DNA of 37,123 nucleotides from a virus. Lineage: Duplodnaviria > Heunggongvirae > Uroviricota > Caudoviricetes. Positions 2,573-9,590 of this stretch are shown here, one piece after another. Below the pieces are notes generated by a model. It saw only the letters and a list, made by a program, of their open reading frames with translations, searched no databases and was not told the origin of the DNA. How positions within the stretch are numbered: position 1 is the first letter of the stretch; every line of letters begins with the position of its first letter. The stretch covers positions 1 to 37,123 of IMG/VR virus record IMGVR_UViG_2713896795_000003; one strand, written 5' to 3'. Made by a program: the position numbers and the translations under genes.

Positions 2573-3043
2573 CTAATAAAACACCCAATTTTCTGTTTCT
2601 TGGTTGTGTCCAAAGTTATATTCAATATCTGGTGTTGATGTATCAATATTCTTCATCCCATCAACAAGAGTTGATACAACAGCCAAATCTTGTTTGATTC
2701 TCATCAAATGGTATTTCTTCCGGCGCAATAAACTTTCAATGGCAAGTTTCTTCGTCGGGAATGCAAAAGATCTTTCTGCATTTTTTGCTACTTTCTTAAT
2801 TGCATATCTATTTCTCCTTTGTTTCCATTCCTGTAACCACAGATTTGGTGCTGGTTTAAAATTAACAATCCAATGCGCAGGAACCAACCATGCATAATGC
2901 TCTGTCTGATGAAAAGCTATATATTGAAGTGCGAATATTTTGATTCCATCTTCTTCAACTGTCGCTTGGAATCTCCAGAAAACAGGCATTCCCTCATGTT
3001 CAGTTTCTGATTCAGGAAAAGGTACGCTCCATGATTTTGTCAT
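2573..3043 (-). CDS. Hypothetical protein (156 aa)
   Basis: ATG at 3043 with GAGGTG SD; no recognisable family. Confidence 0.6.
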   Translation of the reverse strand: MTKSWSVPFPESETEHEGMPVFWRFQATVEEDGIKIFALQYIAFHQTEHYAWLVPAHWIVNFKPAPNLWLQEWKQRRNRYAIKKVAKNAERSFAFPTKKLAIESLLRRKKYHLMRIKQDLAVVSTLVDGMKNIDTSTPDIEYNFGHNQETENWVFY

Positions 3044-3106
3044 ATCTCACCTCAAATAATTCAGTGCAGTGTTTATTCTGTTGTTTATGCCAAAAATAAA
3101 GGACGA

Positions 3107-3730
3107 TTATGCGACCTCGGAAGGAAGTCCAATCATCTTATTCAAATCTTCTACCCGTAAAGCAGGAAGTGCTGTACTTGCTTTATCTGCTTCTTTTGGT
3201 AGCAACTCTTTGCTTTCAGGCCAAACTTCAATAAGTCGCTTAACTGTTGTGACTGAGTTCAAAGCAGCCCATACATTTGATTCGATATCCTTTTTCTTGG
3301 CTTCAAGTTTTTGTTGCAATGCGCAGATTTCATCAAACCTTTTTGTTATTTCGTGTTCTGCGTCAAACATGCATTTATCTTTTTCTGGGGTGGGGAGCAA
3401 TATATCTTCACCGTTGCCGTCTTTTCCGTATGAATGCCAGCCAACCCTTCTTCCAGATACAGTCAGATAAATCGAAGTAGAACGAACATCGCATGAGTAA
3501 AATGAACATCCCATCTTCTCAAGTTCTTCACTTATAGCTGCTAACTTGGATGATAACCGATCCACTTCCTCAGTTTTCTTTTTACCGCCAAACGCAATAA
3601 CTCTGGCGTCAAGTGCAAGCTGGTTCTTTAACTTTGTTACTTCTTCAAGTTCAGTGAAAACCCCAGACTTAATTAAAGCGTTACGAGCGATTTCCTCTTT
3701 CATTCTCGTAGTTAAGCGGATTGATGACAT
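3107..3730 (-). CDS. Hypothetical protein (207 aa)
   Basis: ATG at 3730 (MSSIRLTT...) with GAGGAA SD just after N stop; the longer ORF-track frame overlaps N 3-prime end; no recognisable family. Confidence 0.6.
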   Translation of the reverse strand: MSSIRLTTRMKEEIARNALIKSGVFTELEEVTKLKNQLALDARVIAFGGKKKTEEVDRLSSKLAAISEELEKMGCSFYSCDVRSTSIYLTVSGRRVGWHSYGKDGNGEDILLPTPEKDKCMFDAEHEITKRFDEICALQQKLEAKKKDIESNVWAALNSVTTVKRLIEVWPESKELLPKEADKASTALPALRVEDLNKMIGLPSEVA

Positions 3731-3741
3731 ATTAATTCCTC

Positions 3742-4041
3742 TCAAATAAGTGGTTTGCTGCCTAATTTCATTTTCTGGCGACCAACACAAGTCACCCCCA
3801 TTTCACTGCGTGGCTTGCGGTAGTAAATACGGTTCTGTTTACGCTCGACTTCTTCTGCCTTCTTGCAGCGAAGGCTTCCGAGTGATGCTGCTTTATCTGC
3901 TCTGACGCAACCAGAGAGCTTTAGCGCAATTTTTCGCGCCAGTCGCTGCTCTTGCATTGCCTGTTCACGTTGAGCCTGTCTGCGTGCTCTGCGGCGATTT
4001 CTGGCGTTATCGTCAGCCAGATATGTAATGACTACTGTCAT
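3742..4041 (-). CDS. N: Antitermination protein N-like
   Basis: Arginine-rich motif NARNRRRARRQAQ near N-terminus; C-terminus ...VTCVGRQKMKLGSKPLI resembles lambda N ...ITCSGRQKIKGKSIPLI; GGAGG SD; sits downstream of nutL on the pL transcript. Confidence 0.75.
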   Translation of the reverse strand: MTVVITYLADDNARNRRRARRQAQREQAMQEQRLARKIALKLSGCVRADKAASLGSLRCKKAEEVERKQNRIYYRKPRSEMGVTCVGRQKMKLGSKPLI

Positions 4042-4354
4042 GTTGACCTCCGATGAAACAACTTTGGAAATTTTTTTATTACAAAGTGGTTTCCTTCCCC
4101 GCCAATTAGACGGGGATGGAAGAGCATTTATGAGCCTTCATGGACTCTGCTCGATCAGTTCTATTTAATTAATCTCTCAACTGAATGTAAGTATTCACAT
4201 AAATCCTCCTACCTCTTGTGCAGCTTTCTTGAATATGGTGGCGGCTGCATAACGCCTATGGAATTGACTTTGGCGGTGACGCGCCGGGTGCTTATCTTCC
4301 GGTTGCCGTCGTGCAGCTGCACTTCACGTCACCCCAAAGCCAACTACTCTTTGG

Positions 4355-4397
4355 TTCCCGCATTTCGGCGGGACAATCCCATCAATGTTAAAGAGCC
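4355..4397 (-). promoter_or_regulatory. nutL (boxA GCTCTTTAACA + boxB hairpin)
   Basis: Minus-strand reading gives GGCTCTTTAACA, 12-nt spacer, then hairpin TCCCGC-CGAAAT-GCGGGA; exact inverted copy of the element downstream of cro. Confidence 0.6.
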
Positions 4398-4436
4398 TGC
4401 CAATCTGTTCCGTTTGGCTTCCAGCGTCCTGCTGAT

Positions 4437-4510
4437 GGCTTAAATTTAAGATCTCTTTAATTAATGGTCAAGAGTATTTTTGAAGAAAACTTAAATTTTC
4501 TTTCGTAACT
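4437..4510. promoter_or_regulatory. pL promoter with OL operators
   Basis: Minus-strand -35 TTGACC (4466-4471) and -10 TTAAAT (4444-4449) with 16-nt spacer; 18-bp ATTTAAG-N4-CTTTAAT operator at 4444-4461 and weaker TTAAG-type repeats to 4510. Confidence 0.45.
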
Positions 4511-4533
4511 TAAGTTTGGCTTTGATTTTTAAA

Positions 4534-4562
4534 GGAAATAAAAAAAGGGGCGAATGCCCCTT
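4534..4562 (-). terminator. Intrinsic terminator downstream of repressor gene
   Basis: Minus-strand hairpin GGGGCattcGCCCC followed by TTTTTTTATTT, starting at the cI stop codon. Confidence 0.7.
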
Positions 4563-5211
4563 ATGGAAGGTTTGCTAGTTTTGCATCGACAACTACGCCG
4601 ATGATTTTGCAGTTTCCGTTGATCTCGATCATCGGATATTGTGGGTTAAGTGGTTTTAGAAACTTCCTGCCTGCATCAATAACTAACTTTTTGAAAGTTG
4701 CCTCGTTTTCTCCTTCGAGCTTTGCAACTACCAGTTTCCCGTTACGCGGCTCTACTTCAGGATCGACGAGTATTATCATTCCTTCAGGGATACTGAGACC
4801 GGCTGGAGCCGTCATTGAGTCTCCCTTCACGTCCAACCAAAACGAATCTTCTGAACAGTCTACGGTTGTATCGTACCAGTTATCTATTGCACGCTTATGA
4901 TATGGTTCTACAGCTTCCATCCAGCATCCTGCGCTCACCCAGCTAATCAGAGGGTATGACCCTCTTGGATCATGCCTACTGTGATAGGCAATGTTTGAAA
5001 GACTTTCCTCTCCTTTCATCAGATAGTCAGGGGAACACTTCAACGCATTAGCCAGGGCGAGAAGATTCTCTCCATTTGGCTCTGTCTCAGAGCGTTCCCA
5101 CTGAGATATGGCAACATTAGACACGCCGACCATCTTTCCAAGTGCGGCCTGCCTGATCTTGAGTTCTTTTCTCCGAGCGCGAATGCGCTCTCCCATCAAT
5201 TGAGTTTTCAT
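4561..5211 (-). CDS. c2: CI-type repressor (P22 c2-like; HTH + S24 LexA-like autocleavage domain)
   Basis: 216 aa; N-terminal HTH; C-terminal FWLDVKGDSMTAPAGL...ATFKKL...PLNPQYPMIEINGNCKIIGVV matches lambda CI / P22 C2 from memory; leaderless ATG abutting OR3. Confidence 0.9.
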   Translation of the reverse strand: MKTQLMGERIRARRKELKIRQAALGKMVGVSNVAISQWERSETEPNGENLLALANALKCSPDYLMKGEESLSNIAYHSRHDPRGSYPLISWVSAGCWMEAVEPYHKRAIDNWYDTTVDCSEDSFWLDVKGDSMTAPAGLSIPEGMIILVDPEVEPRNGKLVVAKLEGENEATFKKLVIDAGRKFLKPLNPQYPMIEINGNCKIIGVVVDAKLANLP

Positions 5212-5277
5212 AGTTAAGACATCTTAAATAAACTTGACTTAAGATTCCTTTAGTGGATAATTTAAGTGTTCTTTAAT
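5212..5277. promoter_or_regulatory. OR operators (three 18-bp sites) with pR and pRM
   Basis: Sites AGTTAAGACATCTTAAAT (5212-5229), ACTTAAGATTCCTTTAGT (5237-5254), ATTTAAGTGTTCTTTAAT (5260-5277); pR -35 TTGACT 5234-5239 and -10 ATAATT 5257-5262. Confidence 0.6.
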
Positions 5278-5291
5278 TTCGGAGCGAGTCT

Positions 5292-5477
5292 ATGTACAAG
5301 AAAGATGTTATCGACCACTTCGGAACCCAGCGTGCTGTAGCTAAAGCGTTAGGCATTAGCGACGCAGCAGTCTCTCAGTGGAAGGAAGTCATCCCAGAGA
5401 AAGACGCCTATCGACTGGAAGTCGTTACAGCTGGCGCCCTGAAGTATCAAGAAAGCGCTTACCGCAAAGCGGCATAA
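5292..5477 (+). CDS. cro: Cro repressor (P22-type, 61 aa)
   Basis: MYKKDVIDHFGTQRAVAKALGISDAAVSQWKE... recognised as P22-like Cro from memory; GGAG SD. Confidence 0.85.
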   Translation: MYKKDVIDHFGTQRAVAKALGISDAAVSQWKEVIPEKDAYRLEVVTAGALKYQESAYRKAA

Positions 5478-5483
5478 GCAAAT

Positions 5484-5529
5484 TGCTCTTTAACAGTCAT
5501 GGTCCTCATTCCCGCCGAAATGCGGGAAT
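5484..5529 (+). promoter_or_regulatory. nutR (boxA TGCTCTTTAACA + boxB hairpin)
   Basis: boxA 5484-5495; hairpin ATTCCCGC-cgaaat-GCGGGAAT 5508-5529, 12-nt spacing. Confidence 0.6.
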
Positions 5530-5534
5530 ACAAC

Positions 5535-5570
5535 GCGCATAAGTTGATGCGCATAACTTCTTATTTGTTA
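5535..5570 (+). terminator. Candidate tR1-like terminator
   Basis: Hairpin GCGCAT-aagttg-ATGCGC followed by interrupted T-rich tract; weak. Confidence 0.25.
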
Positions 5571-5610
5571 AGGAAATACTTACATATGGTTCGTGCAAAC
5601 AAACGCAACG
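5565..5610 (-). promoter_or_regulatory. pRE-like CII-activated promoter (TTGC-N6-TTGC)
   Basis: Minus strand TTGCGTTTGTTTGC (plus 5595-5608) overlapping cII start, as in lambda pRE. Confidence 0.45.
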
Positions 5611-5879
5611 AGGCTCTAAGAATCGAGAGTGCGTTGCTTAACAAAATCGCAATGCTTGGAACTGAGAAGACAGCGGAAGCTGTGGGAGTTGATAAGTCGC
5701 AGATCAGCAGGTGGAAGAGGGATTGGATTCCAAAGTTCTCAATGCTGCTTGCTGTTCTTGAATGGGGCGTCGTCGACGACGATATGGCTCGATTGGCACG
5801 ACAAGTTGCTTCGATTCTCACCAATAAAAAACGCCCGGCGGCAACCGAGCGTTCTGAACAAATCCAGATGGAATTCTGA
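5586..5879 (+). CDS. cII: CII transcriptional activator (lambda type, 97 aa)
   Basis: [47 protein letters not shown]... matches lambda CII from memory; the ORF-track start at 5499 is an extension through nutR. Confidence 0.9.
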
Positions 5880-5900
5880 GGTCATTACTGGATCAATCCA
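5824..5900 (-). ncRNA. oop: oop-like antisense RNA (placed by analogy with lambda)
   Basis: cII 3-prime end and the following ~30 bp resemble the lambda oop/pO region; minus-strand GC-rich hairpin followed by U-run near 5825-5850; coordinates approximate. Confidence 0.4.
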
Positions 5901-5911
5901 CAGGAGTCATT

Positions 5912-6058
5912 ATGACAAAACAACTCAGTCCTTACCAGGACAAAATTCACAAACACATACTACGTGATCGCTTCCTGTCCAGCTTCAAGCAGCCTGGTCG
6001 ATTCCGGGCTGAGTTGGAAAAAGTGAAGCTGATGCAGAAGGAGAAAGGTCATGAGTAA
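5912..6058 (+). CDS. Small hypothetical protein (48 aa)
   Basis: Hand-translated [21 protein letters not shown]...; AGGAG SD 7 nt before ATG; stop overlaps O-like gene start. Confidence 0.45.
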
Positions 6059-6911
6059 TCTTGCAACCGTAACACATTTAAGGCCTTCACAACGGCCTGT
6101 GGAGCGTCGTGTGGCAGAAGTTGAAGATGGTTATACCCGTCTTGCAAATGCCCTGTATGAAGAGCTTATCGGCGCAGATTTAACGAAAAATCAGAGCAAG
6201 GTTGCCCACGCCATATGCCGTAAAACATACGGCTACGGTAAAAAGATGGATCGCATTTCTGATAGTCAGTTAGCTCAAATTACCAGGCTGCCAAGACAGA
6301 AGGTAAACAAGGCCAAGAATGAGCTTATCGCGATGAAGGTTATCCTTCGCGAAGGCCAGCAAATCGGGCCTAACAAGAACATCGAAGAATGGCAAATCGA
6401 AGGGTGTCACTACTCTGGTGATAATGTCACTGCATTGGTGACAAAAAGTGTCACCAAAACGGTGACAGCGCTGTCACCAAAACAGGGACACACAAAAGAA
6501 ACTATTACAAAAGAAAAAAGAAATAATAAAAACACTATGTCCGAAAGTGTTCGGACGGAGTGTGAAAAATCATCTGACCGTCACGAAGAAACCGACAAGG
6601 CATTCGAGGAAATATTCTGGTGTGCAGGCATGCGGAAAGCCGGGAAGAAAAACGCGGCTTCGGCATTCAGAACACAGTTCAGGGAATGGCGTAAAACTAC
6701 CAGGGGTACGGCAAGCGAGTTTGCCACGATGCTGGCAGAAGACATCGCATGCAGGAATGGTAAGCAGTTCGGATTCGACAGGTTGTTACCATCGAGCTAC
6801 CTGAACGGTCAGCGCTGGAACGACGAGAAGCCAGAAACTATTCAACCACAATCCAAACCATCATCCGCAATCACCGTATCGAAAACTGGCTACGTGTTTT
6901 TCGACAGGTGA
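6051..6911 (+). CDS. Replication initiator, lambda O-like N-terminal domain
   Basis: N-terminal [36 protein letters not shown]...[13 protein letters not shown]...[11 protein letters not shown] resembles lambda O; iterons lie inside the gene; C-terminal half unlike lambda O. Confidence 0.8.
6405..6535. repeat. Replication origin: four TGTCAC(C)-N5/6-GGTGACA iterons plus AT-rich tract
   Basis: Repeats at 6405-6490 (e.g. TGTCACCAAAACGGTGACA) followed by ACAAAAGAAACTATTACAAAAGAAAAAAGAAATAATAAAAACAC, inside the O-like gene as in ori-lambda. Confidence 0.7.
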
Positions 6912-7018: not shown

Positions 7019-8899
7019 ATGACGCCAAGTGAACTTAGCGACCTGCTTTGGGCGCAGGTTGACAGGGTGGCTCCGCACCTGTTGCCAAACGGCAAGAAAG
7101 AGGGGCATGAGTGGGTTGCCGGTAACGTCAACGGTGACAAGGGAAACAGCCTTAAGGTCAACCTTAGCGGCAAGAAAAAATGGGCTGATTTCGCTGAGGG
7201 AGACGGCGGTGACATGCTTGATTTGTGGATGGCATGTCGTGGAATTAACCTGCATCAGGCTATGCAGGAAGCGAAAGCCTTTCTCGGAATCAAGGATGAC
7301 GATCACCATTTCGATGCCAAACGTGAGAAGAAATTCTCCAGACCTGACCGCAAGAAAATCGCCCGCTACGTTACCAGAACAGAATCCCATCTTGAGTACC
7401 TGCAATCGCGTGGCATATCGCCAGAAGTCGTAAAGCGCTACGAGGTTGTCAGCGGCAAGGTGTGGAATGGAGAACGAGAACTTGATGCACTGGTGCTTCC
7501 GTACAAACGCGATGGTGAGTTGTTGCAGGTCAAGCGAATCAGCACTGAGCGCCCGGACGGGAAGAAAGTCATTATGGCAGAAGGTGATTGCGAACCTTGT
7601 CTGTTCGGATGGCAGGCTCTGGACGCTGGCGTGAGGGCGGTTGTACTTTGCGAAGGCGAAATTGATTGTATGAGCTATGCGCAATACGGCATCTCGGCGT
7701 TATCCGTGCCGTTTGGTGGCGGGAAAGGCGCTAAGCAACAGTGGATTGAGTTTGAGTATCACAACCTCGACAGGTTTGAGGAAATATTCATCTCGATGGA
7801 CGTTGATGATGTTGGTCGTGAAGCCGCAAGGGAAATCGCAAGCCGACTCGGTGAACATCGTTGCCGTCTTGTTACTCTGCCGTACAAAGACATCAACGAA
7901 TGCCTGATGAACGGTGTTACCGAGGATGAAATCTGGCAGTACATCGGCACGGCATCCTACTTCGATCCTGAAGAACTCTACAGCGCGCGAGAGTTTTACC
8001 AGGACACTATCAACGCTTTCTACGGCAAGCAGCAGTATCTGTTTAATCCACCGTGGGAATCTCTGGCAGATAAATTCCAGTTCCGTGAGGCCGAGTTGAC
8101 GCTGGTCAATGGTGTGAACGGTCACGGAAAAACGGAGGTTGTCGGGCATATGGCGCTTGAGGCAATGCGTCAGGGTGTGAAGACGTGCATCGCGTCACTT
8201 GAGCTGAAGCCAGGCATTCTCCTTAAGCGACTTACCCGTCAGGCGACGTGCTGCAAGATGCCGCCAGTGCTGGAAATTGACTCTGCATTTAAATTTTATG
8301 ACGAAAGACTTTGGGTGTTTGGCCTGACCGGAACGGCGAAAGCCGACAGGCTGATCGAAATATTCGACTACGCTCGCCGCCGATACGGCATCCAGTTATT
8401 CATCATCGACAGCCTGATGAAATGTGGCATAGGCGACGATGACTATAACGGGCAGAAGGCGTTTGTTGACTCGATTTGCGATTTCAAAAACAAAACAAAC
8501 TCCCACGTCATTCTCGTTACTCACTCGCGAAAAGGTGACAGCGAAGAAAAACCAACCGGGAAAATGGACGTAAAAGGCTCTGGAGCGATAACAGACCTGA
8601 CAGACAACCTTTTCATCATCTGGCGTAACAAGGCTCGCGAGAGAGCGTTACAGAGAGTTCAGAGTGGTGAAAAGATGTCAGAGAAGGACGAACAGCTACT
8701 GGCATCTCCGGCATCTGTTTTGATGCTTGAAAAGCAACGTAACGGCGAAGGTTGGGAAGGTGGTGTCCCGTTGTTCCTTGACGAGCAATCGCACCAGTTC
8801 CTGCAACTTGAATCAGGATCGCCATATAGCTACATCGCCAATATGCCGAAATCGGAATATGACGAGGCGTGGCGACAGGAAAACGTGACGGAGTATTAA
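7019..8899 (+). CDS. Bifunctional DNA primase/helicase (Toprim + DnaB-like ATPase)
   Basis: 626 aa; Toprim-like VVLCEGEIDCMSYAQYG and DVDDVGREAA; Walker A GVNGHGKT; Walker B LFIIDSL. Confidence 0.8.
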   Translation: MTPSELSDLLWAQVDRVAPHLLPNGKKEGHEWVAGNVNGDKGNSLKVNLSGKKKWADFAEGDGGDMLDLWMACRGINLHQAMQEAKAFLGIKDDDHHFDAKREKKFSRPDRKKIARYVTRTESHLEYLQSRGISPEVVKRYEVVSGKVWNGERELDALVLPYKRDGELLQVKRISTERPDGKKVIMAEGDCEPCLFGWQALDAGVRAVVLCEGEIDCMSYAQYGISALSVPFGGGKGAKQQWIEFEYHNLDRFEEIFISMDVDDVGREAAREIASRLGEHRCRLVTLPYKDINECLMNGVTEDEIWQYIGTASYFDPEELYSAREFYQDTINAFYGKQQYLFNPPWESLADKFQFREAELTLVNGVNGHGKTEVVGHMALEAMRQGVKTCIASLELKPGILLKRLTRQATCCKMPPVLEIDSAFKFYDERLWVFGLTGTAKADRLIEIFDYARRRYGIQLFIIDSLMKCGIGDDDYNGQKAFVDSICDFKNKTNSHVILVTHSRKGDSEEKPTGKMDVKGSGAITDLTDNLFIIWRNKARERALQRVQSGEKMSEKDEQLLASPASVLMLEKQRNGEGWEGGVPLFLDEQSHQFLQLESGSPYSYIANMPKSEYDEAWRQENVTEY

Positions 8900-9417: not shown

Positions 9418-9590
9418 GGCGACAGCGACGAAGTTTCACCGACATCATCTGCGAAAACTGCAAATACCTTCCAACGAAGCGCTCCAGAAATAAATGCAAG
9501 CCAATCCCAAAAGAATCTGACGTAAAAACCTTCAACTACACGGCTCACCTGTGGGATATCCGGTGGCTAAGACATCGTGCGAGGAAATGA
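9414..9590 (+). CDS. ninE: NinE
   Basis: [27 protein letters not shown]... ; ATGA overlap with ninB stop. Confidence 0.75.

Follow-up and report, generated by a model that had tools for sequence, protein, structure and literature searches.

The immunity region and its two inverted elements

The window, by which we mean the whole 37,123-nt stretch of DNA analysed (IMG/VR record IMGVR_UViG_2713896795_000003), comes from a P22-like phage (Lederbergvirus). Its immunity region is laid out in the order N (minus strand), nutL, a promoter-like site, AT-rich operator-like repeats, a terminator, the repressor gene, a second promoter-like site, cro, nutR and cII. N, a transcription antiterminator of 99 amino acids, is encoded by an intact ORF at 3742–4041 (minus strand) and has a C-terminus of the phage 21/lambda type, in agreement with an earlier reading of the letters alone (hereafter the sequence-only reading), which had placed an N-like protein there. 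The candidate pL promoter (TTGACC-17-TAAATT; 4443–4471, minus strand) is sigma-70-like and lies inside the operator-like inverted repeats (oL) at 4442–4517. The repressor gene at 4561–5211 (minus strand) encodes a cI/c2-type protein with HTH_3 and Peptidase_S24 domains and has its terminator at 4545–4562 (minus strand). The candidate pR promoter (TTGACT-16-GATAAT; 5234–5261, plus strand), also sigma-70-like, precedes cro at 5292–5477 (plus strand; P22_Cro family, E = 8.7e-28), and cII is found at 5586–5879 (plus strand; Phage_CII, E = 1.7e-48). The window has a repressor, operators and Cro of the P22 type; over this region it is 98.9% identical to the P22-like coliphage CUS-3 and in part related to phage 21.

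The two nut elements were described in the sequence-only reading as exact inverted copies, each made up of a boxA-like sequence, a 12-nt spacer and the hairpin TCCCGC-CGAAAT-GCGGGA. The boxA 11-mer GCTCTTTAACA is indeed present in exactly two copies in the window, at 4386–4396 (boxA-L, minus strand) and 5485–5495 (boxA-R, plus strand); as RNA it reads GCUCUUUAACA, matches the consensus, stands 5′ of boxB on the transcript and is identical to the sequence annotated in phage 21 as boxA-L. Likewise, the window has exactly two copies of the hairpin 18-mer, TCCCGCCGAAATGCGGGA, at 4356–4373 (minus strand) and 5510–5527 (plus strand), and no match was obtained in 100 dinucleotide-preserving shuffles even with up to two mismatches permitted. 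By itself the boxA 11-mer is not improbable, because at least two hits with at most one mismatch were obtained in 16 of 100 shuffles; its significance comes from its fixed position, 5′ of both hairpins on the same strand. In its exact form, the inverted repeat covers 19 nt (4355–4373 and 5510–5528). The spacers between boxA and TCCCGC, which are 12 nt at nutL (4374–4385) and 14 nt at nutR (5496–5509), are unlike in sequence as well as in length, and the description as exact copies with a common 12-nt spacer therefore holds for boxA and the hairpin, and for the spacer length at nutL, but not for the sites over their full length.

RNA folding, which had been proposed as a check, gave each hairpin as the predicted minimum-free-energy structure. 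At nutL, boxB-L (UCCCGC-CGAAAU-GCGGGA; 4355–4373, minus strand) has 6 bp at −10.5 kcal/mol (z = −2.8); at nutR, boxB-R (AUUCCCGC-CGAAAU-GCGGGAAU; 5508–5529, plus strand) has 8 bp at −12.5 kcal/mol (z = −4.1). In a 108-nt fold boxA-R was predicted to pair with a downstream UGUUAAGG stretch. A search against Rfam over 3000–6500 (E up to 1) returned no family at the nut sites, and two sub-threshold matches elsewhere in the stretch.

Each nut site lies, in sense orientation for the early transcript to which it belongs, 3′ of a promoter-like site (4471–4443 on the minus strand for the pL side and 5234–5261 on the plus strand for the pR side), and the pair brackets the immunity region, with the opposite orientations that the sequence-only reading had given them. 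G+C-rich hairpins this close to promoters might also terminate or attenuate transcription, or serve cI or Cro as operator-like sites in the DNA, but such a function is exceedingly improbable. There is no U-tract 3′ of either hairpin and neither was called by a terminator scan; the actual operators are built of a different, AT-rich repeat (ATTTAAG..CTTAAAT) unlike the nut hairpins; and the same hairpins lie beside seven repressor/operator sets, which rules out repressor binding. A second hairpin (GCGCAU-AAGUUG-AUGCGC; 5535–5552, plus strand, predicted fold), followed by a U-rich stretch, marks a candidate tR1 region, and the tR1 annotation of phage HK620 starts at the equivalent of window position 5527. 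The consensus terminator scan found no canonical intrinsic terminator just 3′ of nutR and did not call the 5535–5552 hairpin. The first gene expected to need read-through past nutR/tR1 should be cII.

Neither the kind of element nor its sequence is new. Identical sequences are annotated in phage HK620 (GenBank AF335538), in an annotation that dates from 2001, as "nutL; putative N-utilization leftward" (GGCTCTTTAACATTGATGGGATTGTCCCGCCGAAATGCGGGA) and "nutR; putative N-utilization rightward" (CGCTCTTTAACAGTCATGGTCCTCATTCCCGCCGAAATGCGGGAAT), and boxA, spacer and boxB are identical at both sites (HK620 features 7753–7794 and 9423–9468). The identification as nutL and nutR made in the sequence-only reading is thus borne out by anatomy and orientation and by the GenBank features that the same sequences bear. 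The window also has in common with HK620 the combination that defines its type, namely boxB UCCCGC-CGAAAU-GCGGGA together with an N arginine-rich motif (ARM) containing DDNARNRRRARRQAQREQ. We are confident that these two elements serve an N-dependent processive antitermination system whose specificity is of the HK620 type, one as its nutL and the other as its nutR. No experiment on, or biochemical characterisation of, the HK620-type N/boxB pair was found in the literature searched, a search that did not take in the HK620 genome paper.

Stem covariation and the boxB loop

The HK620-type boxB was compared over 22 distinct hairpins, the divergent loci being from Cronobacter, Pantoea and Phytobacter and from many uncultured viral contigs; a scan of genome contigs with the N alignment confirmed only four loci, yet these were the most informative. 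In the stem alignment, 90.3% of the cells were paired, and changes on both sides were seen at six of the eight pairs. Compensatory changes were present in 34 cells, as against 11.9 ± 3.1 in shuffles, none of 500 shuffles reached the observed score, and the paired fraction was at most 58% when the register of the alignment was slid. The boxB stem varies with its pairing kept, and the loop is conserved.

Among genuine hairpins, CGAAAU was by far the commonest loop, and the others were UGAAAU, AGAAAU, CGUAAU, CGCAAU, CGAGAU and AGAGAU. These loops follow the rule N-G-N-R-A-U, of which positions 4 and 6 were probed by targeted scans: all matches to scans for C or U at loop position 4, or for a base other than U at position 6, were stemless. 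In a metagenome scan for a base other than G at loop position 2, none of the matches listed reached seven of seven pairs, and the distribution of pair counts among these matches fits chance; the scan is weak negative evidence. Four phages, each with a single N, carry A-GAGA-U at nutL and C-GCAA-U at nutR; the features common to the two loops, the GNRA core and the 3′ U, are therefore presumably what N must read. A large group of hits of the form GCGC-UGAAAU-GCGU, considered as a further nut class, was set aside; in phages of approximately 54 kb, these hits occupy the nin region, upstream of NinG/RusA-like genes.

The arginine-rich motif of N and its association with the loop

The N protein of the window is 99% identical to that of CUS-3, and its match to the Pfam N_peptide family is weak (E = 8e-4, under the curated cut-off). 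Codons 1–33 (3943–4041, minus strand) contain the ARM, MTVVITYLADDNARNRRRARRQAQREQAMQEQR, and form the proposed boxB-binding module. The ARM core, DNARNRRRA(R/K)R, is nearly invariant even though the rest of the homologues are only 50–70% identical or have a C-terminus of another type. HK620 N is such a case: its residues 1–56, ARM included, are identical to those of the window, but its C-terminus is different and H-19B-like (…CLPNVAIYAAGYRKSKQLTAR), and its immunity cassette is also different. The N leader RNA, from nutL to the N start (4042–4355, minus strand), has a predicted whole-leader fold with z = −4.4, with a long hairpin at 4262–4345 (predicted fold, z = −4.6) and a 208-bp inserted module at 4056–4263. 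It is 314 nt long here, against 105 nt in HK620 and HK620-like loci, and 306–562 nt in others.

One comparison is with phage 21, whose N is also of 99 amino acids and whose nut sites have the same layout, with the same boxA (GCUCUUUAACA), a spacer of approximately 12–14 nt and a hairpin with a 6-nt loop; the 5′ leader of its pL transcript is identical through boxA. Over residues 34–99 the two N proteins are identical at 64 of 66 positions (97%), but over residues 1–33 at only 6 of 33 (18%). In a gapless alignment, the phage 21 ARM (GTAKSRYKARRAELIAERR, the NMR peptide, checked against PDB 1NYB) and that of the window (DNARNRRRARRQAQREQAM) agree at only five of 19 positions. The loops differ as well, CUAACC in phage 21 (a UAAC, or "UMAC", core with a C·C flank) against C-GAAA-U here, and the nutL and nutR stems of phage 21 differ from each other whereas both stems are identical in the window. 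The phage 21 hexaloop adopts a 4-nt GNRA-like UAAC fold flanked by a non-canonical C·C pair (PMC12550061; PDB 1NYB). The window thus has a 6-nt loop in common with the phage 21 type (CUAACC hexaloop with an S-R-Y-K-A-R-R ARM), but the loop is CGAAAU, and R-R-R replaces R-Y-K in the ARM.

P22 itself provides a second comparison. The P22 gp24 (N)/boxB pair (PDB 1A4T) follows the same system logic, but the P22 ARM is unrelated in sequence. When the P22 N peptide was searched against PDB sequences, there was no match. The pentaloop of P22 boxB, GACAA, has its C looped out (PMC12550061). The loop here has 6 nt and is not a GNRA-like pentaloop with one extruded base, the type found in lambda and P22. 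The window has a P22-like immunity cassette, but its N/nut module is not that of P22.

Several N/boxB specificities have long been recognised among lambdoid phages. The lambda boxB loop is a pentaloop (GAAAA or GAAGA) that extrudes one base and is closed by a U-A pair, and the lambda boxA is a weaker one, CGCUCUUA; the boxA of the window is of the rrn consensus and not this weaker variant. The statement in the sequence-only reading that the loop is unlike the lambda pentaloop was correct, since it is a hexaloop, as in phage 21, of a different sequence. Lambda otherwise uses the same logic, in that its pL and pR transcripts both carry boxA and boxB and the ARM of its N is N-terminal (PDB 1QFQ, 6GOV); the C-terminal 35 residues of the window's N (65–99) are 57% identical to the lambda N C-terminus (PDB 6GOV), while the middle region of lambda N is unrelated.

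The nut sites could be genuine and the N specificity nevertheless not a separate class, if the pair were cross-reactive with lambda-type N or Nun. The ARM core NRRRARR does resemble the lambda TRRRERR, with RRRxRR in common (checked in PDB 1QFQ and 6GOV), and the loop core is GNRA here, as in lambda, whose loop has a GNRA-type fold. We nevertheless regard this as unlikely. The loop of the window has 6 nt, must end in a 3′ U and is closed by a C-G pair, against the lambda pentaloop on U-A. In addition, BLASTP of the full-length N proteins aligned C-terminal residues only and left the ARMs unaligned, a PDB sequence search with N matched only the C-terminal stretch of lambda N, and the position of lambda Trp18 would be Ala here. 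On the lambda side, Legault and colleagues reportedly observed in 1998 that the lambda N peptide accepts a boxB version with a GAAA tetraloop. Even in phages that have diverged widely, however, the ARM and the loop each hardly vary, and this speaks for a specific, co-adapted pair.

A separate specificity is likewise suggested by the way in which the loop tracks the ARM. In 43 non-redundant ARM/nutL/nutR combinations there was no exception to the association, although this number overstates the independent events because many of the compared loci share descent: ARMs with an R-R-R/K core always occurred with N-GNRA-U loops, at nutL and nutR alike, and the five with an R-Y-K/R core (phage 21 and the loci L095, L096, L091 and L093) with CUAACC, CUAACA, CUGACA or CUAAUC. 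L092 and L093 have an identical nutR stem, down to a C·A mismatch, and differ in loop and ARM together (CGAAAU with NRRRARR in L092 versus CUAAUC with SRYRARR in L093). L219 (AKNRRRARR, loop CGAAAU) and L091 (SKNRYRARR, loops CUGACA and CUAACA) have ARM cores that differ essentially by Arg versus Tyr. The distinct N specificity proposed in the sequence-only reading thus receives comparative support, in that only the ARM has strongly diverged from phage 21 N and the loop follows it.

These comparisons allow a further, tentative proposal, to which we give rather less than even weight: the HK620-type pair may represent a fourth structurally distinct mode of N-peptide/boxB recognition, in which a GNRA tetraloop on a non-canonical N·U pair is bound by an NRRRA(R/K)R helix, and specificity may switch between this type and the phage 21 type when a single Arg is replaced by Tyr, at ARM position 17, and the loop core is altered as well (GNRA versus UAAC/UGAC). 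The N·U pair would take the forms C·U, U·U and A-U, and the Arg/Tyr comparison behind the switch is that of NRRRARR with NRYRARR in L219 and L091.

Linkage, occurrence and a model of antitermination

The HK620 specificity type is common. The 58-nt nutR region was found in 25 phage records, and the same sites are present in CUS-3, HK630, mEpX2, HK140 and IME10, with boxA annotated in HK630, mEpX2 and HK140. The nutR sequence is also present in 499 of 5,426 complete E. coli genomes (approximately 9%), where it bears no annotation at all; RefSeq leaves the class unannotated. The specificity class extends to Stx-converting phages and to prophages of Cronobacter, Pantoea and Phytobacter.

In 80 viral contigs encoding an N of at least 96% identity, the same boxB was present at nutL and nutR without exception. 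Between the two sites, these loci hold seven immunity-region sequence types, in intervals of 1.17 to 3.0 kb, which have in common only approximately 50 bp at the nutR end and approximately 85 bp at the nutL end. The same N, nutL and nutR surround seven cassettes, and the trio has therefore been kept together while repressor, operators and cro were exchanged. A comparison of HK620 and phage 21 DNA shows how the specificity is packaged: the two are identical from the pL transcript start through boxA, divergent over the spacer, boxB-L, the leader and codons 1–33, and identical again from codon 34. Since the divergent tract is continuous, the nutL specificity and the ARM codons form one block of approximately 250 bp, which explains why N specificity and nutL move jointly during cassette swaps between nut sites.

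Seven cassettes bounded by the same short ends would also be seen if the inverted sequences served mainly as DNA-level linkers for homologous recombination, shuffling immunity cassettes as "boundary sequences" with a secondary or absent role as RNA, and the N-cI interval of CUS-3 is in fact annotated "bsq5; boundary sequence". A linker would have no need of a hairpin, however, and neither compensatory stem changes around a fixed loop, nor loop variation that obeys GNRA, nor co-variation with a protein motif would be expected of it. We therefore hold this explanation to be very improbable, and if the sequences do anchor recombination, this is more plausibly a side effect of their being conserved for function.

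As nut sites of the HK620 type, the two elements would work as follows. For NusB–NusE binding, boxA must be single-stranded. The leftward pL and rightward pR transcripts would each carry a single-stranded, rrn-consensus boxA (GCUCUUUAACA) that would recruit the host NusB–NusE(S10), followed 12–14 nt further 3′ by the boxB hairpin with its N-G-N-R-A-U hexaloop. The affinity of NusB:NusE for the rrnG BoxA is approximately 10 times that for the lambda nut BoxA (PMC2800207). N, encoded directly 3′ of nutL, would bind boxB by means of the arginine-rich helix at its N-terminus (core NRRRARR), and its middle and C-terminal parts, which are common with phage 21 N and partly with lambda N, would bind NusA and RNA polymerase. 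The complex would then pass terminators, allowing expression of cII, the replication genes and the leftward early genes. By analogy with the C·C-flanked UAAC fold of phage 21, the loop may fold as a genuine GNRA tetraloop, with a non-canonical N1·U6 pair on which it stacks.

In summary, the descriptive novelty of this study lies in the N-GNRA-U loop rule, the ARM core, a candidate Arg/Tyr determinant, the linkage of boxB-L with the ARM codons and the prevalence of the class. The N-GNRA-U loop and the DNARNRRRA(R/K)R core are a candidate orthogonal pair beside those of lambda, P22 and phage 21. If the proposed recognition mode proves true, the HK620 type would provide one more orthogonal pair for peptide-RNA tethering, as well as a natural series on specificity switching.

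The leader between nutL and N

The RNA between nutL and the start of N (4042-4355, minus strand) is 314 nt in length in the window. Directly 3′ of boxB-L, the boxB hairpin of nutL, a long hairpin was predicted at 4262-4345 (minus strand; GUUGGCUUUGGGGUGACGUG...CGCGUCACCGCCAAAGUCAAU, -41 kcal/mol, z -4.6). Its arms vary among loci (GGGGUGACGUG/CGUCACCGCC, GGGAUUGGAUG/CAUCCAAUCGCC and GGGGUGUGGUG/CACCACACCACC), and the changes, judged by eye, look compensatory. The hairpin looks like a counterpart of the RNase III-sensitive hairpin in the N leader of lambda.

Across related loci (including L019, L030, L008, L004 and L080), the nutL-to-N leader ranges from 105 to 562 nt, and this leader is an insertion hotspot. 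In the window it carries an inserted module of 208 bp (4056-4263, minus strand), located between 'caaagtcaat' and 'catcggaggtcaac', whereas the 105-nt leaders of HK620 and phage 21 lack this module. Only three phage records contain the module, which occurs as two alleles of about 70% identity, one of the CUS-3/window type and the other of the HK140/L033 type. Both alleles share a mini-ORF starting MQPP (ATGCAGCCGCCA) and a Shine-Dalgarno sequence with a start-stop (AGGAGGATTTATGTGA), and both have a G+C hairpin whose sequence is allele-specific (4090-4121 on the pL-sense strand, z -5.7). No Rfam match was found for the module, which might modulate N translation. The leaders of related loci carry other inserts as well: one is a hydrophobic ORF of 39 aa (MLDIMTNPILGGLVTTFAICFGFTIWSEVDDWMWERKNK), and another, about 250 nt long, comes straight after boxB.

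On the other side of N, the gene directly downstream in the early left operon (3107-3730, minus strand) codes for a protein with nucleotide modification associated domain 5 (Nmad5; PF18757, E 2.7e-71), an unusual occupant of that place.

Hairpins 3′ of nutR and within cII

Just 3′ of boxB-R, the boxB hairpin of nutR, lies a second hairpin, GCGCAU-AAGUUG-AUGCGC, followed by a U-rich stretch (5535-5552, plus strand). The matching place in HK620 is annotated as tR1, and the consensus scan did not call the window hairpin as a terminator. Inside the 3′ end of cII, in antisense orientation, lies a strong hairpin that resembles a terminator and has a T-run (5828-5855, minus strand). Its position is that of the lambda oop RNA terminator, and an oop-like RNA is annotated in the homologous region of HK629.

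Nut-like sequences in other records

An exact copy of the E. coli-type nutR was found at 253467-253517 in the 254-kb record of Aeromonas phage AP1 (MT713136.1), about 1 kb from the record end; the record is possibly contaminated or a chimeric assembly. Viral contigs L242-L308, each of about 54 kb, have in their nin region a boxA-like TGCTCTTTAAAAATCC and, after it, a short GCGC-UGAAAU-GCGU hairpin (e.g., L242, 8734-8764). A small Cys-rich ORF and NinG- and RusA-like genes lie downstream of this pair, which may be a further nut-like site or may be coincidental.

Operators and mosaic composition

P22-type operator repeats (ATTTAAG....CTTAAAT) are present in both oL (4442-4517) and oR (5216-5276) of the window, and its cro belongs to the P22_Cro family. 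In the window, therefore, the immunity cassette is of the P22 type, the N arginine-rich motif and its nut sites are of the HK620 type, the body of N is of the phage 21 type, and cII is of the lambda type.
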